Shown piece by piece: positions 37,216 through 64,000 of a stretch of DNA of 64,000 nucleotides. The notes beneath the pieces were generated by a model. The model saw only the letters and a list, made by a program, of their open reading frames with translations, was not told the origin of the DNA and ran no database searches. The DNA lies in the NCBI GenBank assembly GCA_028534125.1, contig CM052816.1, positions 18,726,001-18,790,000 on the forward strand, given 5' to 3'. This DNA is from Lama glama (taxonomy: Eukaryota). The position numbers and the translations under genes were made by a program. Every line of letters begins with the position of its first letter. The stretch's first letter is position 1.

Positions 37216-37715
37216 NNNNNNNNNNNNNNNNNNNNNNNNNNNNNNNNNNNNNNNNNNNNNNNNNNNNNNNNNNNNNNNNNNNNNNNNNNNNNNNNNNNNN
37301 NNNNNNNNNNNNNNNNNNNNNNNNNNNNNNNNNNNNNNNNNNNNNNNNNNNNNNNNNNNNNNNNNNNNNNNNNNNNNNNNNNNNNNNNNNNNNNNNNNNN
37401 NNNNNNNNNNNNNNNNNNNNNNNNNNNNNNNNNNNNNNNNNNNNNNNNNNNNNNNNNNNNNNNNNNNNNNNNNNNNNNNNNNNNNNNNNNNNNNNNNNNN
37501 NNNNNNNNNNNNNNNNNNNNNNNNNNNNNNNNNNNNNNNNNNNNNNNNNNNNNNNNNNNNNNNNNNNNNNNNNNNNNNNNNNNNNNNNNNNNNNNNNNNN
37601 NNNNNNNNNNNNNNNNNNNNNNNNNNNNNNNNNNNNNNNNNNNNNNNNNNNNNNNNNNNNNNNNNNNNNNNNNNNNNNNNNNNNNNNNNNNNNNNNNNNN
37701 NNNNNNNNNNNNNNN
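37216..37715. other. Assembly gap (500 N) in SLC25A48 intron 2
   Basis: Run of N. Confidence 0.99.
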
Positions 37716-46800: not shown

Positions 46801-49800
46801 CACCCGGCGGCATTTCTCCCTGTCTCTGCTGCTCTCTCGATCTGCGTTCTCATCTCCTATCTCCTTCTTCCATGTGGGGCTCCTCAGGGCCCTCATCTGG
46901 ACCCTCTCCCAGCCATGCCCATCATCTCTCAGCCCACAACCCCCACACCACGTCTCCAATCCATCTCTGCTCTATGCATCACCTCTACTTGGAGAGCCTC
47001 AGGCCATCTCTAACTCAGCACGGGCCTTGATGAACACTAACTTTGCAAAGTGTGCTTCCTTCAGTGTCCCCACCCAGCAAGCCACCCAAACCAGACCCTG
47101 GATGTCATCCTCTATACATCTCTTCCCCAAGGCCTCCTCCCATCAGCCACGAAGTCCTGAGGGTCTGTCTCCTCCATGGCCCTGACAAACAGCCCTCCAA
47201 ACAGTCTTCAGATGAGGCTCAGCCCACGCCTGCACCTCTGCCCCTGGGCCCCTCTGCCTTAGTCCCCTGTCCCTCCAGCTGCTGTCACAGTGAGCTTCTG
47301 AGATCTTGAATCTGCTCCAGCCTCCTCTGTTGAGTGGCCTCCCCATGGCCTTGATCATAATTCTACGTCCCCAGCTTGGCCTGTGAGTGTCTGTGGGCCT
47401 GGGTCTGGCTGCCTTTCCACTTCTTTCCTCCTACTACCCCAGCCCTCCCCTCAGGCTGGAGCCCCAACAGGGTGGTGTGTCCTCCACACCCCACACGCTT
47501 TCCACTGTGTGACTGCCCACGTGTTCCCTTGTGGGGAACACCCCCTCCCCCACTTCTCCTCTAGCTGACCCCTGCACCAGCCTCAGGCTGTAGGAGCTCT
47601 GGGGTCCCTTCCTTGACTCTGATGAGTAATTTTCCAAGGCTATTAGAGTTTCTCATTTGGGGCGGGATTCCTTCCTTTACTGACAGTTCTTTGAGAAAGT
47701 CTATTCAGAGCTTGTTCTGACTGTATTTGGGTCATTGCCTATTCAATTTGACCTTCCAAGTCAAGAAACAGAGGCAAATGGCTGTGAAGTGAGGAGGCAA
47801 AGCAGCCTCGGGGAGACGGGGCTGCCTGGGCTCTGCTTCTGGTGCTGCTGCTAACTGGGCACTTTGGGCAAGTCCATGTCTCAATCCCTCCTACACCCTG
47901 CCTTCTGTAGAGTAGGAGTGAGTCCCCTCTTAGGCAATGTCCAGAGAAGTCTGAAATTCTAGGCCAGGGAGACAGATGCTGTGGGTGTCTTGTTGAGATA
48001 CGCCAGGAGAGGGCGCTGCAGCACAGCACTTCGAGCTCTCAGGAGGAAAGAGCAGCCTGGCTGCCCCAGTGCGAGGTTCCTGGCCCAGGTTCCTGGCCCT
48101 GGGCTAGCAGAGTCAGAGCCAGCACACACTTGGGGAATGAAAGAGATGCTGACACGAGAGGCTCCGAAGGAGTCTGAGGGGCTTGATGAGGACCCGTTTG
48201 AGGCGTCTTCAGAGCTGGGTATTTGGAGGGAGAGCACCCCAGTAAGGGGAGGTAACACCACATCTTTTCACCTGCTTTGTTTCATCAAGGTCTCACATGT
48301 ACCAGATTCTTTTTCACTTCAGGGCTCCAGGCTCACCCAGTGCTATATGCTCTACCTACACCATCACATCGAATTCTGTAAGGCAATTCCCCATTTTCCC
48401 TGAGAGGAGAATGAAGCTCAGGTTGGGTGAGCAATTTCTCCAAAACCACACAGCCTGTGAGTGAAGGATTATGGATTCACACCTGCCGTTTGACCCCAGG
48501 ACCCAGCTCTTAACAAGGTGATACCTCCTGGCCAAGCCTCAGAATTGGAGGTGACTTTCCCCAAAGCCAAGGCCCTACCCCTGCCCTGGCCCCACTGCAT
48601 GGGTATCCTAAGTTCCCTGACTCAGTTTCTCCACCAGCAGTGAGATGGTATTAACATTTGCAACTATGCTCACATTCTTAGGGCCGCAGAGGCCTCAGTC
48701 ATCAAGGGGAGGAGCCCAGGCTGCCTGCTGTCCTTTCCTCCCTGTCTAGGTCCTGTGGGCCGAGTTGGTTTTGTGCATGGCTGAGAACAAGGAAAGCCTG
48801 GCCTTTTCTTCACAGCTGATGGACACAAGTGGGCTCATGCTGAGGACAAGCAGAGGCCAGGCAGGGCCCAGGAAACCTGGGTGGGGAGATCTGGGGTTGC
48901 GGGGTTTCTGTAGGAGAAGAGAGGCGTGGGGTGTGGGCAATGGGGGTGGGGAGGATTGTTGAGGTCACATCCAGAAGCCCCTTCTGAGCACCTGCTGTGT
49001 GCTGAACTGCCTGGCGTGTGGAGAGCTGGTGATGCAGACAGTGAGAGAGGAGTTTGTGTTGGAATGGTTGGCCCAGCCCCACCCCGTTGGCAGGTCTCCA
49101 CCACCAGGCAGCATCAGACTTCAGCTGTAGGGCCCCAGGAGGAGACCAGGAAACCTCATACCATGCCTGAGCTGAAAAGAAGAGAGGCCAGACTGAAGTT
49201 TCAGGAAGGAGCTGTTCCTAAAAAGACAGCTGGATTTTGTCCTGCAGAGGGCAGAACTGAGTGATGCCAGTGGGGAGACAGCAAGGGAGCCTGAAGAGCT
49301 TCACCTGCTGTGGGAGAGAAGGCTGGAGGCTTGGAGTCTGATCCCGAGCACCCTGGCCAGCAAGGTGACTCTGGACGGTGGCATCTGCTGGTTATTGGTG
49401 GTCCCCAGTCCTCCTGCTGCTGCCTATGAGTAGACAGAGGATCTGTCCCCAGGCTGGCTGCATCTCACCTGGCACACCTCCCTGAGGTGGGCTGGGGCTC
49501 CCTGCACAGCTGCCTCGCTCTCTGTGGGGACCTGGTGGGCTTGCCCAGGGAGGCTGAAGTCTGTGCTGGTCCAGCCTCTCAGAAGGGCTGTGGTGTCCCT
49601 CCCCACACCCGCCTGAGAACCAGCCATCCACCCTTACCCAAGGACACACATACTTGTCGGTCTCTGAGGGAGGTTGGGGAGCAGCTCTGAGGACCTGGGC
49701 GCAGGGGGCGGGCAGTAGAACCATCAATAAGTTCCATCCCCAGGGACACCGCCGGTCTTCCCCCTTGCTGCGTCTTCTTTCCGCAGCTCACTTTCTCCAC

Positions 49801-51744
49801 CTACTAAAAGAAAGGCCAGACTTAAGACCTGTGACAAAACCCTCAGTTCTGAACCCACCCACACCCGCTGCTCTCTGCTCCAGGGTCAATGTGGACATGG
49901 CAGAGAGGGAACTTCCTGTTTTTAAGAGGGGAGGTTTAAAGGACTCCAAGGACATCCCATTTTTGATGCAAGTACAAAAGAAAACACTTAAAAGAACAAA
50001 ATCCCCAAACCATATGGATTAGATTTTCTCCAAAACAGACAGAGATTTCCAAAGTGACAGAAGCTGTGCCCAGGGAGGAGGCTGAGAGGAACCAGCCTTA
50101 AATGAGGTACAAGTCCACTTGGGGTGGGCAGAAGGGAAGTTGCCCACTGTCCTACACCTTCCATGGCTCATGGTTCTGCTGCAGCCGCGTCTCCCAGCAA
50201 AGCAGTAGAGCCGGGGCTCTGCTCCTGCCTGTCCCTTCATCCAGTCCCGTCTCCACTGCAGGAACGCTGCCCCAGGCAGCCCCACCTTCTCCCTTCTGCA
50301 TACAGTCTCACACCTTCCATCCAGGCTACTCATAATGACCAAGGCAACTTCCATCCCCCTTCCTCCACTCCTCCCCTAACTTTAGGCCCCATAAAACCAG
50401 AATGTACCCCCTTTTCTGCCTTTACTGATGCCTCATCCGTCCCAACAATTAACGCTTGGGTACGCATCATGAACTAGGCATAATGTTGGGTGCTGGGGAT
50501 ACGACCCTTTTATATTAGCACATCCCTCCCAAGCAGAGTGTTAATGCTGCCTCCCTCTGACTCTCCCAGCCCCACATCCAAGGCCAGCTTTGGTGAATGA
50601 ACTCTCTCTCCTCCAAATCACCAGAATTTGGCACTATATGTTGTAAGCCCACCCTTTACCCAGGATCTCTCCTGCCCTGGATCCTTCCTGCATACCACTC
50701 CCCTCTAGAGAGTTCTCAGTCTTGAAAAGCTCAAGGGTCCCTTCAGCCCCACAAGCCAGTGAGGTTCCTCCAGCTCCCTTGGGAGCTGCTGGCACTTGTC
50801 TGCAGGGCTCCCAGCCCTGTTTACGCTCTAGAGGACCCCCCACACACACACACAGGAAGAGGGAGCTGTACCTTGAACCCAGCTTGGAGTCCTTGAGATG
50901 TGAGTGGTCCTGGCTTCTAACACACACCCAGACACCTCCCAACTGTTTCTTTGAGGGCAATGAGGGCCCCAGTATGCCAGCCAACACAGACCCAGCCCAG
51001 ATTCAGCCCTGATGTGAACACATGAGGGGCCAGGCCAATCCCCACATTCTAAGAATAAAGCCAAGAAGTCTTCCAGCAAGGGCACCTAGATTTCTTCCAT
51101 CACTCCCAAGTCCAAGTCCCCTAGCCCAAAGGGAAGTCATAGGAGGGCCTTGGAAATAAGTGGATTTTTTTTTTAGAAGATTCTTCAATGTACCTGAAGT
51201 ATGACTGATTTCTTTTCCTTCCTCAGGAAGCATGGGGAGCTAGTGAAAGCATTCTCCTGGGTGGAGGAATAGGAATCAGCCGTCAGGGTGTGCACATCAG
51301 AGGAGGGGGACAAGGAACCAGCACCACAGTTCTAGTCCGTGTATGACTGGGCACTAAGGATGGTTGCAAACAGGAGCCAACGTTCATGTGCTCAGTCTGG
51401 GGAGTCAGTGGGGTGGACGGGCACACATTGTCCTCATCCCATGTGCTTCAGCCTCGGGGCCCTCTGCCATGGCATGGAGTGATCCTGGAGTTAAGGGCTG
51501 GGCTGGGGCATCAGCAAACATGTTCACAGTGTCCAAGAGGGCAGGGTCTCGGCACATGTGCGCTGTGTCTCTGTCCCCTGTGTGCTGCTCCAAATGGCAG
51601 GAAGCCAGGGAAGGAAAGGCAGAGGGGCAGTGGGGAGAGGAGAGGTGGAGGCGAGCCAAGGGGAGCCTGGTGGGCAGCAGTGGGCTCTCCCCTTGCTGTG
51701 TGAATGCTCACCAAGGAGGGACACATGGAGAAGTGCTCAAGCAC

Positions 51745-51945
51745 CCAGGCCTTCAGGTCAGACCAAAGTGGCTGGGAATCCCAGCTCCTCTGTCTGTGAG
51801 CTGTGTGAGCACGGGGCACTCTACTTAACCTCTCTGAGCCTGTTTCTTCAACTGTAGAATAGCGATGACACCAGTGTCTGCCCCTAAGGATTAGGGAGAT
51901 GTCTCTAGAAAATGCCTAGTACATAGTAAATGCTCAATAAACAGA
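51745..51945 (+). mobile_element. MIR SINE
   Basis: acttaacctctctgagcctgtttcttcaactgtagaat...tagtaaatgctcaataaa. Confidence 0.75.
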
Positions 51946-52009
51946 AGCCACAGGTATTACTCCAAAGCATCAGATTAGTGCACCAGCTCAGACTCTTGTA
52001 GTGGAATGA

Positions 52010-52015
52010 TTTATT
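52010..52015 (-). terminator. Poly(A) signal AATAAA for the candidate gene
   Basis: tttatt on the + strand, about 515 nt downstream of the candidate stop. Confidence 0.5.
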
Positions 52016-52530
52016 TACAAGGCAGTCTCTGATCTCTGTACCTCACACTTAGGCAGGTGGAACCTGCTCCCTCCCCTTTGTGGAGACACTTTGGAGACAG
52101 ATGGTCTCCACTGGGCAGATTTTCCAGCTGGCAGAGCCTGGCAGGGGGCAGTTCCCAGGTGAACATGGGGTGCAGGTTGAGCTCTCCCCTCTGCTGAGGC
52201 AGATCCCGGGGTGGAGCTGTCCACTGGCAAGGTTCAGGGTCTTCTTTCTAGCCCAACAGGAGAGCCTGCTGGGGTTTGGGCTCCTCTCGCCAGCCCTGAA
52301 GGCTGTGGGCAGTGGGGCGGGGAAAATGAAGGCCTGAGGACTGCAGTCCCTGGCCAGCTCCAGGCCCAGGGCAAACAGAGCTCTGGGAACCTCACCCCCA
52401 GCTATCTTCATCCTTCGCTGATCAGCTGGTGCTAGGGGCTGTTCTCTGGTGGTTCCTGCCGCTGTCAGCTCCTGCTCCCTCATAGTGTGGCCGCACTGGG
52501 CCTGGGCAGCTTCTCTGTGGGCTCCTGGCC

Positions 52531-52761
52531 TCATGGTGGAGAGGCAGGAGGCCCAGGGCTTGTGTGCAGCCCCTCCTCAGGGGTTCTGTAGTAAGGCACA
52601 AATCCTGAAGCACAAAGGGCCTGGCTGCTGAAGGCAACGTCGCTGGAGAGCGGGGCATCCAGGCTGCTGTCTTGGGAGTTCCCTGCGGAGACCAGCTGGA
52701 TGGGGCAGCAGGTCGGGGAGTGAGGGGGCCCAGAGACGAGGTCTGAGCCTGCAAGACCAAC
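52531..52761 (-). CDS. Unidentified protein-coding gene candidate, last exon
   Basis: Branch point and tract gctgactgtcttgtctccttccgacccag|; phase 0; VGLAGSDLVSGPPHSPTCCPIQLVSAGNSQDSSLDAPLSSDVAFSSQALCASGFVPYYRTPEEGLHTSPGPPASPP*. Confidence 0.65.
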   Translation of the reverse strand, partial: VGLAGSDLVSGPPHSPTCCPIQLVSAGNSQDSSLDAPLSSDVAFSSQALCASGFVPYYRTPEEGLHTSPGPPASPP

Positions 52762-53004
52762 CTGGGTCGGAAGGAGACAAGACAGTCAGCCGGGTTCCCA
52801 GGTTCAGCCTGCCACCTAGGGTTGGCCTTTGCTTCCACTCCACAGTAGTGGTAGGGGAAGAAGGCAGGGCCAGGCCTGTTCTATAGATGGAAGCACCCAA
52901 GATGTCACTCACCATGCTCAGGGCTCCCAGCTGGAAGGCATGCACCTGAGATTAGAACCCACTTATCCTGCCTCTTCTGTGTTTGCAGTCATAGGCCATG
53001 GTGC

Positions 53005-53420
53005 TAGCTTCATGGTTATAGGGCATGAGCTTTGGGTCAAATCCCAGGTTTGCTCTTGCTAGGGGTGTCTTTGGCCAAGTCACTTAACTTCTCTGAGGCT
53101 CATTTTTCTCATCCAAAAAAATGGGAATAATAAGACCTATCTCATAGGACTACTATTAGGACAAATGAAAAGATGAATGTGAAATATTTGTCTGGGTACC
53201 TAGACTAAACAAGTGTTTCTGCAGGGGAACAGCAGGCTAAGCCTGGTGTAATAAACACATAATTGTACACAATTCTCACAATGGCTGTCTTTTATAAGGA
53301 AACTGAGGTTCATGAGGCTTAAACACATTGCCCAGGCCGCTCTCAGATCAAGTGGCCGAGCTGGGATTGAGTGAGGCAGCCCACCTCCAGTCTCCGCGCT
53401 CTTAACCAACGACACACTGC
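53005..53420. mobile_element. Two MIR SINEs in opposite orientations, in the last intron of the candidate gene
   Basis: caagtcacttaacttctctgaggctcatttttctcatc (+) and aaggaaactgaggttcatgaggcttaa (-). Confidence 0.75.
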
Positions 53421-53551
53421 TTCAGGAGCCCCAGATGACCTCAGGGGACCTGGCCAAGCCTATGGGGGTCTGGGGCCTTGGGACAGAAGTCTGAAGGATG
53501 CCAGGGCACCTAGTGCTGCTCCCTGCACCCTCCTGTGCCTCCCCGACTCAC

Positions 53552-54007
53552 AGAACACCCTCTGCTGTCTGTCATCCTGCAGCATCTGCAGCAGCAAGCC
53601 TGCGTCCCCCTCCTGGTGGGGACGTCCTGGGAGCCTGCACATGACCTGCCAGGAAGGGCCAGGCTGGGAAAACTCTCCTCCTTGGAGCGGTAGTAAGGGA
53701 AGAAGCCACTGGGTGGTCCTGAGTCCTCTGGGAACAGCCCCTCTCTGATACTCTGGTCTCTTCCTCGGTCCCTGCAAACCTCAGGGGCCAACTCCTCCTC
53801 AGCCAGGAGCTGCCCGTAGGTGCGGAAGAAGGGCAGGTACTCCAAGGCCACTCGGGGCCCATGGGAGAAGTCAAGGTTGCTGAGGGGCTCACTGCCCCTT
53901 GCACTGGTGGCCTGTAGTTGCTGGGATGGAGGCTCTGAATTGTCCTCCTCCAGGAGGCCCAGAGAGGGCAAAACTTGGGGTTCAGCCTCGCAGCTCTTCT
54001 GGGAAGT
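53552..54007 (-). CDS. Unidentified protein-coding gene candidate, penultimate exon
   Basis: cctttctcttcccag| TSQKSCEAEPQ...ALEYLPFFRTYGQLLAEEE...SGFFPYYRSKEES...TDSRGCS |gtgagt; 456 nt open, phase 0 at both ends. Confidence 0.65.
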
Positions 54008-54059
54008 CTGGGAAGAGAAAGGTGTTCCACCTGGTATTGCATCCAACTTCCCCAGCCCC

Positions 54060-54900
54060 TCCAGCTCCCTCCCCAACTCCTGCCTACGTTGGTGGCTCTC
54101 TTTGGTTAAAACCCAGCGGTGGCTCCCAACCATGGTCAGGTTACCCACAAGCCTCAGAGGACCCAGCCCTGCCAGCATCTGCAACCTCATGGTGCATCCT
54201 CCTCCCTGCAGGACACACTGATCTTCTTGCCCTTCCTCAGTCACACCAAGCAGATCCCGCTTTAGAGCCTGTACTTGGATCTGCTCTTGGACCTCTGAAG
54301 CCTTCCCAGTCCCTGCCTTCACCGGGTGATTCTGGATCACTCTGCCTTCACTTCCGCTCTGAAATGTTTTTCTTGGTCAATGGTCTGCCTGCTGTGTGTG
54401 GTGGTCTTGTCTGTCTGGTGCTCCTGGCTCACTGGAGGCACTCAACTGATACTTTGCCAACAAATGACCTGTCTAATCTGCTGACTCTCAGTGCATCTCA
54501 CGTGCCCTTCACTCTGGCCAGTCCAGCCACACAGACCTTCTCTCAGTCTTTCTCACTCACCAAGCATCCTCTTGCCACAGGGCCTTTGCGCTTGCTAACG
54601 CTGCTGCCTGGACTCTCCCCCCTCTTCTTTTTCCTCATTGACAGCTTCTCCAGCTCTTGGCTTAAGGTCATTTCCCTTACTGCCCTGATTTAGCTGCCTC
54701 ACTCTACCATGGACTCCCACCACCCTGATACCACTCATTCAGAACGCAACACCATTCCTCTGCTGGGAAACATTCATCTGCATGATTACTTGATTAATAC
54801 CTTTCATTCCACTAGTTAAAAATCCTGTCTTCTGTATCCTTGGGGCCAGAACAGCTCTGGCATACAGTAGATATCAAATATTGGAAGAAAGAAAAGGAAG
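54060..54900 (+). mobile_element. L2 fragments
   Basis: ttaaaacccagcggtggctccc, ggcactcaactgatact, gccacagggcctttgc, tctggcatacagtagatatcaaatatt. Confidence 0.65.
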
Positions 54901-55609
54901 GTTGGAGGGAAAGAAGGAGAAAGGAAGAATACTGAACTGTACTTTGCCAGGAACAAAGTCCAATGTCACAGGAGGGAGAAGCCACGTCTTGGGGGGAGTG
55001 TGGGGTGGGGAGTGAGGAATTACTTCCCAGGCCCTGAAGGGATATAGGGGCCCAGAACACCTATCTATCTGTGAAGAACCAGCCCATCTCCACCTTTGCG
55101 TGTCAGGGCCATGGGTACATGCTGGGGTTCATGGGTACACATGTGGCCTCTGGGTCCCACAGGAGTGACCTATTGTGGTCTGGCCCTGGCCTCCTTCACT
55201 CTCACTGGGGCCTCTAGGCCTTGAGCCCTTCCTCCCCCATCACATGCCATGGGTCCTTGCTGGCCTCAACTCCTGTGTGCAGTGTGACCACAATGCAAGG
55301 TCTAAACCTTGGTAAGTGCCTGCTGTCCCACAGACTGCAAATTCCTGAAGGTCAGGGACCAGGCCCTCCTCTGAGTCCCGCGTGCCCATCTCAAGCCACT
55401 TTGCAGAGTTTCTGCCACTTTCCAGACACCCCATGGGCTGTGCTGGGCAGCCCTCTCTCTGCTGTAGCCCTTAGGGGGCCCATGAGGACAGACTTGTCCT
55501 TCCAGCTTTGCAGCACCAAGAAAATAGGACAGACTAGTGGCTGTGCCAGGGTTTGAGGCCAAGTCTGCCCTGCTCTGAAGCCTGTGCTCTTTTCACTGTG
55601 ACTTACATG

Positions 55610-56046
55610 GCATCATGGGTTGAATACTGTCCCCGATAAGATATGAGGTCCTAACCCCTGGTACCTGTGAATGAGGCCTTATTTGGGAATAGACTTTTTG
55701 CAGATGCAATCCAGTTAAGATGAGGTTCCCTACATCCAATGACTGGTGTCCTTATAAGATGAGGGGAATTTGGAAACAGACACAGGGAGGATGTCATGTG
55801 ACAAGGGAGGCAACGATTGGGGTGATGCTGCCACAAACTAAAAATGCCAAGGATGCCAGCAACCATCAGAAGCTAGGAAGGAGAGAGGCAAGGAACAGAT
55901 TCTCCCTCTGAGCCCCCAAGAAGGAACCCTGCCCACACCTTGATTTTGGCTTCTGGCCTTCAGAACTGTGAAAGAATAAATCTGTGTTGTATGAAGCCAT
56001 CCAGTGTGTGGTGACTTGTTATGGCAGCCTGAGGACACGAGCTCAT
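55610..56046 (+). mobile_element. MLT1-type (ERVL-MaLR) solo LTR
   Basis: tgggtttgaatactgtcccc...gtgaatgaggccttatttggg...gaagctaggaag...cagaactgtgaaagaataaa...ttgttatggcagcc. Confidence 0.9.
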
Positions 56047-56205
56047 AGAGGTGGTTGGATGGCTGGTTCATGAATGAAAGGCACCTGGCACACAGATGAA
56101 GACTTGCAGGGCTCTCCCAGCACCCCCTGGTGAGCAGCTTGTGGGGAGAGGCCCATTGCCGTGACCTCGGGTGCCCTCTGTGGGCTGGGCTCACCTAGGC
56201 CTTAC

Positions 56206-56316
56206 CCTTCCTGCCATGTGGTGGCGCTGGCCTGGGTGGACCTGTGGTGGACCAGCCACTCTTCTGCACCTCACTCTTTTCCCGCCTGGGCCCTGGCTCC
56301 ACTTCCCCAGCAAGTC
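56206..56316 (-). CDS. Unidentified gene candidate, internal exon
   Basis: ctgaactccttcaatccag| DLLGKWSQGPGGKRVRCRRVAGPPQVHPGQRHHMAGR |gtaagg; 111 nt, phase 0/0. Confidence 0.4.
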
Positions 56317-56859
56317 CTGGATTGAAGGAGTTCAGGTGCACTGTGACTAACTCCTCAGAGGGGCTCAGTGTCGCTTATGCTGCCTCTCGGACACCGCCTC
56401 CAGCTTCCATTCCAGAGTCAGCAGCAGCCCCTAATTGTCAAGCTCTTGCTGAAAAGACAAAGCCTCGCTCGGCAGGTCTCTTCCTCCTGGCTTCTTATTC
56501 CCCTGGCAAATCCCTCTCTGCCTGTCAGAGTAGATTCCATCATGAAGTCACAAAGCCTGGTGCCAGGCAAGAAAGCCAGATGGCTCCGTTGCCATGGAGA
56601 CTTCTGCCCAAGCACATAACACCTGTGACCATCACCTGCCTCTTAATTCAGCTTAATCCAGATCCCCCCAGAGAATCATGGACAAAGGCAAGGCTGACAT
56701 CTTCTGGAATCAGATCAGTTCTCCAGGACGGGGCCAGCGAGCTCGCTCAGGAACTTGTGCCCAGAGACTCATGGAGCCCCCCAGGGCCTCTGGTGTGTGG
56801 GGGGGGAGGGTTCCCAAGGATCCATTCTGCTGCCTGGGGCTGTCCGGACCTCTCCTTAC

Positions 56860-57049
56860 CTGGGTGCCCCAGTCCCCTCGGGGCTGCAGGTGAGACCCGG
56901 GTCTCAGCCCTCCGTCTCGGCGGCCCCTCCTCTGTGGTTCTTCCCAGTCAGGAGTGAGCACGGGGTGAGACAGCCGTGCAAGGACGGACTGTGCCGAACT
57001 TTCTCCCGCGGAGCCAGCATCCCAAGCTTCTCTCCCAGGTCTGGTGCTT
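56860..57049 (-). CDS. Unidentified gene candidate, internal exon
   Basis: tctcttccctctgagcag| STRPGREAWDAGSAGESSAQSVLARLSHPVLTPDWEEPQRR...DWGTQ |gtaagg; 190 nt, phase 2/0, CpG-retaining. Confidence 0.45.
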
Positions 57050-57894
57050 CTGCTCAGAGGGAAGAGACCAGCATCTGTTGTCACCTCCTAGTGTCATATC
57101 CACCAGGTGATTCCCACACACGGCCGTCACTATAGACTTTCAAGTCAGGGAGTGCACCGTTGTTAGGCCATATTACAGGTTGGAGAGCTGAGTCTCAGCA
57201 CTAGGACAGCTCGGAGAAGAGGGCTTCAGAGCTAGTCTTCAGCCTTAGGGCTCAAGGCCTGGGTGTCTCCAGAACCACAGGTTTCCAGCCAAAGTGTGGC
57301 CCAGCGGGCTCCCTGGGACCAGGCAGGGCTCCCAGGGCCCAGGCAGGGCTCCCCCATCTCTCTGCCCTGGAGCCCATGTACTGTGGACCATTTAAGCTTG
57401 CTTTGCTTTTTTAGTAGCCTTAACTCTTTATTCCATGTGGAATTTATCTTTTGTAAGTGGTAATAAATAAGGCTCTAAATTTATTTTATATTTTGAATGG
57501 CTAGTCAGTTGACTCAACATCATTTATGAATAATTTATTTCTCCCCAACGTGATTTGAAACGCAGAAGTATAACCACATTCTAAATTCTTAACTATTTCA
57601 AACTTAAGTCAGTTCCTCAAATTTATTTTTCTATCCCTCTCTTTGCCTCTCTTGGTACCAATACCATATTGTTTTGATCTCTTTAGTTTTATCATAATTT
57701 TAATCTATGTTATATAGTCATCTTTAAAAAAGTCAAATTTACTGAAGTCTAATTTACCTACACCATAAAGCACATGGTTCACCAATCTACACACTCATGT
57801 AACAATCCCAAAATTAATATATAGAAATGCCTCTTTCCAAGTAATCCTCTCTCTGCTTCCCAACCCCAAGCAACAACTGATCTGCTTTGTTTGG

Positions 57895-58017
57895 AGCAGG
57901 GAGGTAATTTGGTTTACTTATTTTTCTTTATTTATTTTTAATGGAGGTACCGGGGATTGAACCCAGGACCTTGTGCAGGCTAAGCACACACTCTGCCACT
58001 GAGCTATGCCCTCCCCC
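57895..58017 (-). mobile_element. tRNA-derived SINE, camelid Vic-1-like
   Basis: Minus strand ggggagggcatagctcagtggcagagtgtgtgcttagcctgcacaaggtcctgggttcaatccccggtacctcca plus A-rich tail ending aattacctccc; A and B boxes present. Confidence 0.85.
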
Positions 58018-60678
58018 TTGGTTTGCTCTTTGATGCTACAGATTCATTTTGCTGGTTCTAGAATAAATGGAATCACACAATGTGTATTCTTTGGTGTGTA
58101 GCTTCTATTCTTTCACGTTTTGGTTTTTAGACTCATCCTTGTTTGTGGTACACTGTTAGCTCCTTTTTGTCGTTGAGCAGTGTAACATCGCATGGTATAT
58201 AACACAATGTGTTTATCCACTCACCTGCATACAGACATTTCTGTTGTTTCCATTATAACTAAAGCTGCTGTGAATAGTTATATAAGACTTTATGTGGGCA
58301 TAGCCATCATTTCTCTTAGGTAAATACTCTGAATTCCAATAGCTTGATCATATGGTAAGTGCATGTTTAACTAAATAAAAAACTGCCAAACTATTTCCAA
58401 GGTGGCTGGACCATTTTTACATTCTCAGCAGCAACGTGTGAAAGTTTTAGCTGCTTCACATTCTTGTCATCATTTTAAAATTTCTACTGTTCAAGTGGGT
58501 CTATTGTGGTATATAACTGAAGTTTTAATTTGCATTAATTACTAATGATATTTAACATCTTTTCAGGCACATGTTGTGAATTTGTGTGTCTTCATTTTTA
58601 AGTGTCTGAAACTTCTGCCAACTTTAACAATTTTATTGTTATCATGAAAATACTATAAATTGCATCTATTCAAAGTGTACAATTTGATAAGTTTTCACTT
58701 ATGTCCACACCTGAGAAGCCATCACCACAATCAGGTTAACAAATATTTCTATCAAACCCCAAATTTCCTCCTGCACTTTTGTAATCAGTCCCTCCCTCCA
58801 AGTCCATCCCCAGGCATCTATGATCTGCTCTCGGTCACTATAGATTACTGTACATATCCTTATCTTTTGGGGGGTTTGCAGAGCCTCTTGGGTATGTCAG
58901 TTTATGTCTTTCACCACATTTGGGAAGCTTTAGGTCTTTATTTCTTCAAATATTTTTTACTAGCCTATTTCTCCTCATGGTCTAGGACTCCAAAGACACA
59001 TGATAATTTTTAAAAATATTTTTTCCCACAAGTCTCTGTCCTTTTTTCCCCTATTTTTCTTTTTTTCCAGTTCCTCAGATTGTGGAATTCTTATTGATTT
59101 CTTCAAGTTTACAGGTTTTTTTCTCTCATCATCACCAATCTGCTATTGAAATCATCCAGTGAACTTTGTAATTTCACATTATATATTTTTCAGTTCTAAC
59201 ATTTCCATCTGGTTCTTTTTCATAGTTTTTATTTCTCTGTTGAGAACCTCTGTCCTTTTGTTCATTCCAAATGTGGTTTGTTAACAGCCTCTTTGAAGTC
59301 TTTGATAATTCCAGCACATGGTCACCTTGGGGCCGCCAGCTATAGTCTTTTCCCTTGAGAACTGGGCACATTTTTCTGGATCTTTGTATGCCGGGTAGTT
59401 TTGAATTGTCCCAGACATTGTGAATATTACATTGTACAAACTTGGGTCCTGTATATAATACTCAGGGAGCAGTTGATGTTTTGTTTTAGAAGGCAGTCAA
59501 CTCGGTTAGGTTCAAGCTGCAAGTTCTGTCTTACCTTCTGTATGCAGTGGGTCAAATCTAAGTTCAGTTCTCTAAGACTTTGCTGTGTTGTGCTGGTGGT
59601 TTGAGTCTGTCCTGAGCTTGGGTTTACTGATTAAGCTAAAAAGACGGGTGCCCCAAATCACAAAACTCCTTTAAAAAGTATTTATGCACATGGTTTAAAT
59701 CTGAGTTGGTTCTCAAAGTGTGGCTGTGCTGGTTTGGGTCTGTCCCACTCATATGTCACTCAGGGGTTAGGCTGAGATTTGTATGCAGATTCAAAGAATT
59801 AATGGACTCTTTTTCTGGCTCTGTCTCCTCCTGGATTAGCCCCACATTCTCTGTCCTTGAGGGGGGGTCCCCCTTCTGCCACTGCTGCTTTGCTATTGTG
59901 CTAGCAGAGCTGGCCCACTGGGCAAAGCAGAGGGGGAGGAGGGAGAAAACAAATGAACCTGGTAGTACTACCCCTACATGAATCACGCGTCCACGTTTTG
60001 ACTCTGCTCCACAATCTGCTTTGTCTACTTTTTGTGTTTTCAGCTAGTTGGTTTTTGTATTTTGTTCAGAGTTTTTAGTTATAATCAATGGGAGGAATGA
60101 ACTATATAAGTGAGCTTATGCTATCATGCTGGCACAGGGACCTCCTTTTCAAAACATTTTCTGTCAGGTTGTCTTGTTGTATTGTAAGAGCTTTTATATA
60201 TGCTGGATACAAGTCTTTGGTCAGAAATATGCATTGTGAATATTTCCAACCAAGCTGTGCCTGGCCTTTTCATTTTTTTAATAATGTCTTTCTAGGGAAG
60301 AGAAGTTTTTAAATTTGATGAAATCAACTTTTTTTTTCATTTGTGCTTTTGGTATCCTGCCTAAGAAATCTTTGCCTGTCCCAAGATTGTGACAATTTCT
60401 TTCTTTGTTTTCTTCTGGAAGTTCAATAGCTTTAGCTTTTATATTTAGGTCTATGATTCTTTTGAGTTAACTGATATGACTGGAGGTGAGGACCAAGATT
60501 TATTTTCCCATTTGGATATCCATTATGCCAACACTGTTGGTTGAAAAGACTTTCCTTTCCCTTGTTGAAATTCTTTGGCACCTTTGTCGAAACTCAATCC
60601 TATACATGTGGATCTATGTATCCTGGACTCTGTGTTCTGTTTTATTGGCTCACACCATACTGCCTTGATTACTGTCAT

Positions 60679-60886
60679 CACAGTTCTCAATCTTGGCACT
60701 ATTGACATTTTGAGCCAGATGACTCTTTGTTGGGGGTGCTATTCTGCACATTGTCGGATGTTTAGCACCATCCCTGGCCTTCTTCCACTAAATGCCCTGA
60801 GTTGTGACAACCAAGAATGTCTCCAGACGTTGCCAAATGTCCTCTGGGGTCGGGGGGCAAAAACTGCCTTCAGCTGAGAACTATTG
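60679..60886. mobile_element. MER20 (hAT-Charlie) inserted in L1
   Basis: gttctcaatcttggcactattgacattttgagccagat...tgtgacaaccaagaatgtctccagacgttgccaaatgtcc...gagaactattg. Confidence 0.9.
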
Positions 60887-62208
60887 CTGTAAATTTACTA
60901 TATGCCTTACAATCAACTACAGGAGTCTGCCAATTTTATCCTTTTGAAAAAATATTTTTTAAGTATAAAAACAAATCTGTATCCTAGGTCCTCTGCATTT
61001 TTATATAAATTTATGTTAATCTCTAAATATTTCAAGTTTTTTATATGTCTGTCTTTTTTAGTTAGTAAAATTCTCCTTTTTGAGTGTACAGATCTATGAA
61101 TTTTGACAAATACATGTCAACATGTAACCATAACTGAAATATTCTATACTTTGATTAAAGTTATCCCCTCAAATCCCTTCTGCCCTGTGACGTTCTGGTA
61201 AACCAGGTCTCAAAAACCAATAACATGACCAAGCCCTGATGGCAGAGTTTGCTCACTTCCCTGGTATAAGTACTTCTATCTGGCTGGTCCCCAAGATGCT
61301 AACCTGGCACTGCTCAACATGGACTTGGAAGAGAGGTGCACACTGTGTTCCTGTGAGCGGGTATCTCTAGTACACCACTCACTGTGCCCCTTGTAGAGAA
61401 CCCTCTCCTCACCCCCACTTAACCACTGATCTGTTATCTGTCCCTGTGGTTTTTGCCTTCCCCCTAAAATCACACAAATGGTATCATAACAAATTATGGT
61501 TATCCCATGCTTCTTGGATGTCTATCTCTGACTTCTCTACTCTGAGAGACCACTGTGCTCTGAATGAGTGTCCCCTTTCCTACTGCATTTTAAAAATGTC
61601 TTCAAGGAGAAAGCTGGGATGATTTTAGGGCTCATCTTCTTTGTTCCCTTTCTCGCCTGAAACACTGTCTTGCATTTTCTGTTTTCCATTGTCTTAAAAT
61701 CATAGTTTCCTATTTTATCCAGTTTCCTAGTTGTTCACAGTGGGAGGGCAAATTTAGTACTAGTTATTCTTCAACTGACTAGAAGCAGAAGTCCCTACAA
61801 CCAATTTTTAATAGTCACATTTATCTGCAAGGTTATTCTATGCCAGAAACCATGTCATTCATTTTTCATTGATTATTTCCACTTAATAATCCTATCAGGG
61901 GTATGTAAAGAGAAGAAAATGAGGTTTAAAGAGGTTAAGAATTTATGGAGTAATAAATGGCCAGTGGTAAACGGCAGAGCTGGAATTCAAATCTAGGCAG
62001 CTAGACTCTGAAGGTGAAGTGCTTAATCACTTTGCTACTGAAAAATGATTTTAGGTGACACACAGGGGAACAGTTTTTATTTTAATAGCAAATATACTTA
62101 ATGTATATTAGGAAAACTAACTATCACACCAAAACTATGATTTTACAGATATTTCTGCTTGGGAGAAGAATAGATTTTTTCTTCAATAAAAAATGAATCT
62201 ACTTAAAT

Positions 62209-62942
62209 GCTGGAGAGGATATGGAGAAAAGGGAACCCTCCTACACTGTTGGTGGGAATGAAATTTGGCGCAGCCATTATGGAAAACAGTATGGAGATTC
62301 TTTAAAAAACTAAAAATAGACTTAACACATGATCCAGCAATCCCACTCGAGGCATATATCAGGAGTGAACTCTAATTCAAAAATATACACGTACCCCAAA
62401 GTTCATAGCAGCACTACTTAAAATAGCCAAGACATGGAAACAACCTGAATGTCCATCAACAGATGACTGGATAAAGAAGTTATGGTATGTTTATACAATG
62501 GAATACTACTCATCCATAGAAAAGAATAAAATAATGCCATTTGCTGCAACATGGACAGACCTGGAGAATGTCATTCTAAGTGAAGTAAGAAAGAGAAAGA
62601 AAAATACCATAAGATATTATTTATATGTGGAATCTAAAAAAAAAAAGACATGAAGCTATTTACAAAACAGACTCACAGACATAGAAAACTAACAAATGGT
62701 TGCTAGAAGGGAAAGAGAATGGGAAGGGATAAATTGGGAGTTCAAGATTCGCAGATAATATTATACATAAAATAGATAAACAACAAGTTTCTACTGTATA
62801 GCACAGGGAACTATATTCAGTATCTTGCAGCAACCTATAATGAAAAAGAATATGAAAACAAATATATGTATGAAACATTGTGCTGTACATCAGACATTGA
62901 CACAACATTGTACACTGACTATACTTCAATTTAAAAAAATGG
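62209..62942 (+). mobile_element. Relatively young 5'-truncated L1 with target-site duplication
   Basis: gagaaaagggaaccctcctacactgttggtgggaat through to the A-tail; flanked by aaaaatga(a/g)tctacttaaat at 62189-62208 and 62943-62962. Confidence 0.93.
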
Positions 62943-63677
62943 AAAAATGAGTCTACTTAAATATCTGTATCACAGGTTATAATGGGATGCAAAAAGAACA
63001 TGCAGGAGATGTGAGAACACTTGTGCTGTGGGACCAGACACCACACTTTGTCCCTTCTGGTTCAGTGAATGGGGTTCCAGGCTGCCCCTGTGTCTGTGTG
63101 TATCTGTAGGTGTGGATGATGACGACTCACTTCATGTAAAGGGAATCATGTATCACAAGTTGCTTTCTTCATTCTATAACATGTGCTAGACTTTGCCCTA
63201 AACTATAAATAGAGGTTAAAGCCAGCCCCTTAGGCCTTTCTATGCAGTTGAAGCTTTTTTTTAACCTGCAAGATGTTTCAGGTGACTTGGAGAGAGCCAC
63301 TTCCTCATGGCTGCTGTGCAAGTCTAGAGTTCTGGGGTTTTGGGAGCAAGCCCTCAGTTATCCCAGCCCGCACAGAGCCGTGGAGAAAATGCATCTAATT
63401 CACCGTGCAAGCCAGAGCAACTCAAGTGTTTGGTCCAGCAGAATCCCTCTCCCCAGGCCCAACCTCCAGGGGCTGCTGCCAGTTAACAAGGCACTGGCCT
63501 TCCTGGCCTCCCTGAATCCTCATTGATCCTCACGCTCATGGCCAGCAGGACATGATCTGGCCCAGAGATGGGACTGATTTATCCAGGGTGGAGCTAGGAG
63601 TCTGCGCTGAAGAAGCACTTGAAAATCCTCACAATCCCAGGGGCAGGGATGGGGAACGCCATTCTGGAGATACTCAC

Positions 63678-63712
63678 TCGAGATCAGTGTGGCCCGTGAC
63701 TGTGAAGCCCAT
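63678..63712 (-). CDS. Unidentified gene candidate, possible start-codon exon (exon 63678-63728)
   Basis: ctgctctccctgcag acceptor; ggcATGg Kozak; MGFTVTGHTDL(E); donor GA|GTGAGT in phase 2, matching the next exon. Confidence 0.3.
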
Positions 63713-64000
63713 GCCTTTAGCCTCTGATCTGCAGGGAGAGCAGTGTCTCTGCCTGGACAGACTACAGTCTCAAGGAGGATGGACACCAGCCCTCCCTGTG
63801 TCTCACACCTCATCTGTGTAACAGGGCCATCTGCCCATCCTGCAGGAGGTTTGAAAATCAGATTTCCAGGGATGTGTGGTCCCTACACTGCTGAGTAGGT
63901 GGGGGCTTGGAGAAAGCAGAGATTCGAGAAGACGGGAGTGGTCAGAGAAGGCTGACGACAGGAGGTAAAAGGGCCCAGCTGCAGCCAGACCAAACCTGCA

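Follow-up and report, generated by a model that had tools for sequence, protein, structure and literature searches.

Gene structure at the locus

The window analysed here is a 64,000-nucleotide (nt) stretch of Lama glama DNA (contig CM052816.1), and its minus strand carries a gene that would encode a protein of 232 amino acids (aa). Judged by comparison with sequences from other species, the window almost certainly holds a copy of an already annotated, unstudied gene, with a coding sequence of 232 codons in three pieces. The first piece (56206-56217) begins with the ATG at 56217, reads MAGR and ends at a GTAAGG donor; the second, the main coding exon (53552-54007, exon 4 below), supplies 152 codons and is in phase 0 at both ends; the last (52531-52761, exon 5) supplies 76 codons and the TGA at 52531-52533. 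Joined, the three pieces give the 232-aa protein. A probable 3′ untranslated region (UTR) occupies 52010-52530 on the same strand, reaching to an AATAAA at 52010-52015 where a polyadenylation site is predicted.

Exon numbers follow an earlier note on this DNA, which had proposed a longer, five-exon model. We re-read the sequence and joined the five minus-strand segments by script, and every sequence fact given there proved correct. The segments (63678-63728, 56860-57049, 56206-56316, 53552-54007 and 52531-52761) measure 51, 190, 111, 456 and 231 nt, 1039 nt when joined, and have GT-AG borders with matching phases: the acceptor ends of segments 1 to 5 read CTGCAG, GAGCAG, ATCCAG, TCCCAG and ACCCAG, and the donors of segments 1 to 4 read GTGAGT, GTAAGG, GTAAGG and GTGAGT. 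Together they hold a stop-free frame of 1023 nt, or 340 codons, from a ggcATGg at 63712 to the TGA at 52531-52533, with the AATAAA lying 3′ of it. The remark that the open reading frame (ORF) track fuses the 456-nt exon is likewise borne out, since the stop-to-stop ORF at 53510-54376 (288 aa) merges that exon with its flanks.

There is no CpG island within 50001-64000, where the CpG observed/expected ratio is at most 0.31. The gene is single-copy in its own 2.35 Gb genome (one match among 11 scored candidates), and on the strength of that single match a paralogue in the same genome was rejected.

Annotated relatives in mammals

The 232-aa product is identical at 230 of its 232 positions to an NCBI entry of the same length, 'uncharacterized protein [Vicugna pacos]', which also shares its MAGR start, its exon junctions and its stop. 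Both differences (Q/R at residue 186 and S/G at residue 189) fall in the last exon, and exon 4 is 100% identical over 152 aa. The window therefore represents a different individual or assembly, or a very closely related animal. This near-identity means that the gene is already annotated, with the exon-3 donor, exon 4 and exon 5 that the earlier note had recognised. The two 3′ exons of that note are thus exact, and the protein search for existing annotation that it had recommended does return a match; its description of the gene as unrecognised does not hold, given the alpaca protein and many mammalian LOC entries.

The gene appears in the automatic annotation of dozens of mammals, the human entry being LOC107986453. 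When proteins of similar length were searched, 70 of 101 candidates matched at E ≤ 1e-10; the alpaca protein came first, and human LOC107986453 isoform X3 and a chimpanzee record were also listed. Among longer proteins, 825 candidates yielded 20 matches at E ≤ 0.001; the named ones belong to dolphin, fin whale, deer, sheep, hyena, horse, bat, meerkat, orangutan and elephant seal and are entered as 'uncharacterized' or 'hypothetical'. We then compared a mammalian profile of 11 rows, comprising nine mammalian proteins and the window's two exon translations, with 1.84 billion representative sequences; 65 clusters matched at E ≤ 1e-3, 57 of them at E ≤ 1e-10 and 45 at E ≤ 1e-30. The names include eutherians (bat, tree shrew, anteater, rabbit, guinea pig, vole, hamster, deer mouse, squirrel, chinchilla, buffalo, rhinoceros, marmoset, sifaka and wild camel) and marsupials (opossum and bilby), and nearly all the members are again called 'uncharacterized' or 'hypothetical'. 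Mammalian LOC orthologues such as human LOC107986453, Pongo LOC112133511, Oryctolagus LOC103347875 and Monodelphis LOC103098944 share three collinear motifs with the window protein, and many share the MAGR start; they differ from it in overall identity, which runs from 78% down to about 30%, and in their variable 5′ exons and C-terminal tails.

Searches for a known domain or a published description gave little. No Pfam family matched the window's pieces at E ≤ 1, and none matched seven of eight orthologues, the eighth giving GSCFA at 13.1 bits, below its cut-off of 25. A literature search, with supplements outside its scope, found no mention of the family's LOC identifiers, the Camelus locus tag or the motif strings. 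Pattern scans of metagenome contigs with two family proteins matched 597 and 120 stretches, of which none was confirmed.

An amniote-wide family with three aromatic motifs

The family extends beyond mammals. The four weakest matches to the mammalian profile (E 1.3e-5 to 7.5e-4) carry the same three motifs, and a profile of these four proteins retrieved 41 proteins at E ≤ 0.001 among 2848 candidates. Thirty of the 41 are named and all of those are sauropsid (11 are without a name): lizards, geckos, snakes, turtles, alligator, ostrich, turkey, pigeon, parrots and others, nearly all labelled 'uncharacterized' or 'hypothetical'. Aligned with hhalign, the mammalian and sauropsid profiles match over 155 columns with a probability of 98.3% and an E-value of 1.9e-14, and the three motifs line up in order. 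On this profile-profile comparison, we conclude that the family is at least amniote-wide.

All three motifs are present and intact in the window, each with the core P-[FY]-[FY]-R-[ST]. Motif 1 (EYLPFFRTY, residues 60-68) is encoded at 53816-53842 and motif 2 (GFFPYYRSKEE, residues 105-115) at 53675-53707, both within exon 4; motif 3 (GFVPYYRTPEEGLHTSPGPP, residues 209-228) is encoded at 52546-52605 in exon 5, all three on the minus strand and all located from alignments. Across the family, motif 1 reads LEYLPFFRTY in mammals and YLPYYRTY in sauropsids, motif 2 reads GFFPYYRSKEE and GYFPYYR[ST]YEE, and motif 3 reads GFVPYYR[ST]PEE.LHTSPGPP and GYFPYYRTYG.LL, so that the shared core can be written [FY]-x-P-[FY]-[FY]-R-[ST], with acidic residues after the core in motifs 2 and 3. 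In a 39-row alignment that includes the sauropsids, the positions conserved in 90% or more of the rows are P63 and T67 in motif 1, G105, F107, P108, Y109, Y110 and E114 in motif 2, and P212, Y214 and R215 in motif 3. After the arginine, S and T replace one another in several lineages, and F and Y are likewise exchanged; such changes at fixed positions are the pattern expected from selection on the peptide.

The sauropsid proteins (for example Pogona LOC110073495, Pelodiscus LOC112544638, Alligator LOC132243402 and Struthio LOC104141062) have three Y-x-P-Y-Y-R-[ST] motifs in the same order as the window's. They differ in being longer (about 300-360 aa) and richer in acidic residues and in Asn and Lys, and they are only 15-22% identical to the window protein. 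Between the motifs divergence is fast, with identity to the first row of the 39-row alignment falling from 79% to 15%.

The tail 3′ of motif 3 differs among species. Deer, horse and tiger use a stop about 17 codons beyond the window's TGA (52483-52533). Past this TGA the window's frame reads on as GQEPTEKLPRPSAATL*, resembling the C-termini of those three species, and where the window has its stop, dolphin and deer have W.

A product predicted to be disordered

With a mass of about 25 kDa and an isoelectric point of 4.9, the product is acidic; it has 12 cysteines, including a CCC.CC cluster. Serine, proline, glycine and glutamate make up 42% of the 232 residues, in agreement with the S/P/G/E-rich composition noted earlier. 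The highest 19-residue hydropathy is 0.87 and a hydrophobic segment is absent; a secreted or membrane protein was rejected for want of any hydrophobic stretch.

Structure models predict that the protein is disordered, as the earlier note had supposed of most of it. In the ESM Atlas, the model for the horse orthologue has a predicted local distance difference test score (pLDDT) of 0.39 and a predicted template modelling score (pTM) of 0.12, and that of a turtle protein gives 0.35 and 0.11. AlphaFold2, run on the 232 aa with the 39-row alignment, gave a mean pLDDT of 52.7, a pTM of 0.14 and no secondary structure; the highest ten-residue pLDDT means (64-66) coincide with motifs 2 and 3. A profile search of the PDB returned only two matches, both at chance level (E 0.53 and 0.92), and the structure matches of the ESM Atlas models all have template modelling scores below 0.3 on disordered models, which makes them meaningless, so that no usable structural relative emerged.

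The 5′ exons and the start of the protein

We compared 187 collected relatives with the window by tblastn. At E < 1e-5, 139 of the 187 match exon 4 and 72 match exon 5, and not one matches exon 1 or exon 2 of the earlier model. Within 56318-64000 there are just seven alignments (E 0.11-0.95), six on the opposite strand and one elsewhere in an intron. The N-termini of the relatives point to a start in exon 3: 18 of the 187 open with MAG[RKM], the counterpart of the four codons that immediately precede the 56206 donor, and the named models with this start come from alpaca, dolphin, meerkat, hyena, mole, big brown bat, rhinoceros, rabbit, vole and deer mouse. In primates and some others, the initiating methionine is the first codon of exon 4.

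How readily an open chain of exons arises upstream can be gauged from the number of candidates. By fairly strict splice-site rules, the minus strand of the 10 kb upstream contains 38 AG..GT segments of 40-300 nt that are open, the plus strand 20, and shuffled sequence a mean of 12 (range 3-22). With 38 candidates, an in-phase chain ending at exon 3 is expected by chance, and by a rough count several such chains are expected. By the matches of the relatives, exon 4, exon 5 and the 56206 donor lie far beyond chance; by those matches and this count, exons 1 and 2, together with the coding use of most of exon 3, do not. The first 108 residues of the 340-aa model are therefore unsupported, since none of the relatives matches them and chance accounts for the open chain, and the conserved start is the ATG at 56217. 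The caution with which the earlier note had treated its 5′ exons was well placed. Of its exon 3, the donor at 56206 is real and coding use of most of the exon is unsupported; the remainder (56218-56316, minus strand) is probably 5′ UTR, with a putative acceptor at 56316. The borders of exon 2 (56860-57049) and exon 1 (63678-63728, with the ATG at 63712) hold on the minus strand. Exon 1 is unsupported and exon 2 is unsupported as coding sequence, though the latter, or both, may be 5′ UTR. At the search sensitivity used, both regions match only themselves in the genome.

It is very unlikely, in our assessment, that the five-exon model is true as it stands, with a start at 63712 and the first 108 residues as a lineage-specific N-terminal extension. 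Its frame is open, its GT-AG borders are good, its phases match and its exon 1 and 2 regions are single-copy; moreover, the ATG at 63712 has G at both -3 and +4, and the ATG at 56217 has C at -3. What weighs against an extension is that the alpaca protein has 232 residues and starts MAGR, that cetaceans, carnivores, bats, mole, rhinoceros, rabbit and rodents share the MAG start in the 18 models counted above, that no relative extends into exons 1 or 2, and that an in-phase chain is in any case to be expected from the 38 open candidates.

Several models have other N-termini. A tiger model begins ten codons upstream of MAGR in the same exon, where its PLGQHLWMAGR resembles HPGQRHHMAGR of the window, so that exon 3, in its 3′ part at least, is transcribed in the model of a relative. 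An alternative start, MGLSPQAA..., found in deer, dolphin and horse models, matches 56156-56118, just 3′ of the exon-3 donor; the stretch homologous to this N-terminus covers 56035-56156, and in the window its frame is soon broken by a stop. The N-terminus of a 'LOW QUALITY' protein of Mirounga (MSQEHQTDKTTTH...) matches 54370-54432 at 77% identity, inside the upstream part of the 288-aa ORF, and is probably intronic or repeat-derived sequence drawn into the Mirounga model. A 20-nt tandem repeat of 2.4 copies lies at 57306-57353, in intron 1 of the five-exon model just upstream of exon 2.

The SLC25A48 neighbourhood

SLC25A48 shares the strand of the gene and follows it head-to-tail downstream. 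The carrier part of a Galemys protein named 'Solute carrier family 25 member 48', compared by tblastn, places SLC25A48 exons on the minus strand between 16528 and 36320, with matches at 36320-36111, 34079-33816, 19253-18978 and 16674-16528 (80-86% identity in the last three), and so upholds the placing of an intact, multi-exon, minus-strand coding gene upstream of and co-oriented with SLC25A48. The latter is described as a mitochondrial choline importer in PMC11953726. The 232-aa product has no Pfam match and hence no carrier repeat (PF00153), and the exons that match the carrier all lie downstream of it. In Talpa and Galemys, linkage to SLC25A48 is implied only by model names or by a fusion.

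A CAG followed by GT inside exon 4 (near 53646, after ...SLALPG) serves as a donor in a Camelus ferus model, where it is joined to 48749-48862, and the Galemys model uses the same donor to reach the SLC25A48 exons. Either join could reflect an error of annotation or a genuine read-through transcript. At 37216-37715, among the SLC25A48 exons, lies a run of 500 N that may be an assembly gap.

Constraint and alternative explanations

As a crude substitute for the ratio of non-synonymous to synonymous substitution, we took raw-contig ORFs that continue from exon 4 into the introns and compared the identity of exon and flank. Exon 4 and its downstream flank differ clearly in three of these (0.77/0.51 in P0005, 0.78/0.48 in P0025 and 0.63/0.40 in P0035), a contrast that suggests constraint on the exon, though weak. 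In others the contrast is slight (0.66/0.57 in P0013; 0.64 against 0.57-0.69 in P0026 and P0038), and this is one of several points that tell against the reading preferred here. Outside the motifs, the protein evolves at a near-neutral rate: identity to orangutan over exon 4 is 53%, in keeping with the fast evolution proposed in the earlier note. The link to sauropsids is carried mainly by three short motifs. Motif 1 has changed from Y to S and from R to C in both Camelus models, and from R to C in hominoids, so that strict constraint does not act on every motif everywhere. Human LOC107986453 isoform X3 and the chimpanzee record lack motif 3, an absence that could be a matter of isoform choice or of gene erosion in hominines. 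Among the profile matches, one Dipodomys (kangaroo-rat) cluster is named 'collagen alpha-1(I) chain-like', and a 1593-aa protein of Emiliania huxleyi matches the mammalian profile at E 2.8e-13; the latter match, which is spread over seven stretches of that long protein, was set aside as most likely a compositional or repeat artefact.

Two side observations concern the same motifs. The R to C change in motif 1, at a position that is otherwise conserved, is recurrent, occurring also in a mouse lemur and a squirrel; the motif is intact in the window. Reading through the exon-4 donor ends both the human and the chimpanzee record; orangutan, marmoset and siamang keep motif 3.

Two further explanations dispense with an independent protein of this kind. 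The segments could be alternative upstream exons of SLC25A48 joined to it by read-through, the 232-aa frame being a by-product or an alternative N-terminal region; they lie on the SLC25A48 strand 8-16 kb upstream of its matching exons, a Talpa protein carries the name 'solute carrier family 25 member 48 isoform X4', the Galemys model fuses exon 4 to the carrier, and the Camelus ferus model leaves exon 4 near 53646 for the exon at 48749-48862. The Talpa 'isoform', however, is without any carrier part, and each fusion comes from one automatic model; the stop is followed by an AATAAA, the models of most species finish with motif 3 and a stop codon, and the three motifs are kept in sauropsids, all of which makes read-through an unlikely account of the gene. 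Alternatively, the locus might produce a non-coding RNA or be a decaying gene, in which case the open frame would owe its appearance to ascertainment, protein databases containing only those species whose frame is open, and the conserved patches would be regulatory elements in the DNA. Divergence near flank level outside the motifs in some comparisons would fit such a state, as would records marked LOW QUALITY or using other exon-5 frames (for instance Mirounga and Crocuta X1), the absence of motif 3 from the human and chimpanzee records, and the varying position of the stop. Yet the peptide motifs can be recognised in birds and lizards as well as in mammals, their spacing varying and their replacements (F/Y, S/T) being conservative, a pattern that regulatory DNA is not expected to give, and in raw-contig ORFs of several mammals exon 4 is open over its full 152 codons; we consider a non-coding or decaying locus quite unlikely. 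The combined reading, in which the annotated three-piece gene encodes a protein that works through docking motifs, is probably the best explanation as a whole.

Proposed mechanism and significance

From the conservation pattern by itself, the three motifs would be the working parts of the protein. Since no fold is predicted and the three motif copies are the only deeply conserved features, we propose that the motifs serve as linear docking sites through which the disordered chain would bind one or more folded partners, and the presence of three copies suggests that such binding would be multivalent. The hydroxyl residue after the arginine might further act as a phosphorylation switch in motifs 2 and 3, where it forms part of S/T-x-x-E; S/T-x-x-E is a kinase consensus. 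The site of action might be reproductive tissue. We offer this docking mechanism tentatively, as a possibility somewhat short of an even chance. A class of disordered proteins acts through repeated short linear motifs, and the window protein likewise has no predicted fold and has its conservation confined to motifs; it matches no known motif class, however, so that the resemblance is one of kind only. A bolder extension, that this amniote-wide disordered family with its P-Y-Y-R-[ST] motifs forms a new multivalent docking class for a conserved partner in reproductive tissue and is eroding in hominines, strikes us as rather doubtful.

The existence of the gene is known from automatic annotation, and the present analysis accordingly carries no weight as a gene discovery. 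What it adds is a corrected model, of 232 rather than 340 codons, and the recognition that scattered LOC entries belong to one mammal-to-bird/reptile family defined by three short aromatic motifs; it also flags the automatic models that merge the gene with SLC25A48. The description at family level appears not to be in print, and we regard it as an incremental finding. The family offers a small, clean case of the conserved 'dark' proteome, with motifs that are directly testable.

RNA data

A word-index search with 52010-54007, in which the two exons and the UTR make up 60% of the stretch, used 202 sampled words. Eight runs recorded as RNA contain part of this stretch: one run of a third study has 0.18 of the words (shares below 0.2 are not used as evidence), three runs of a second study have 0.27-0.34, and four runs reach 0.42, three of them from one 'reproductive system metagenome' study and one from the second study.

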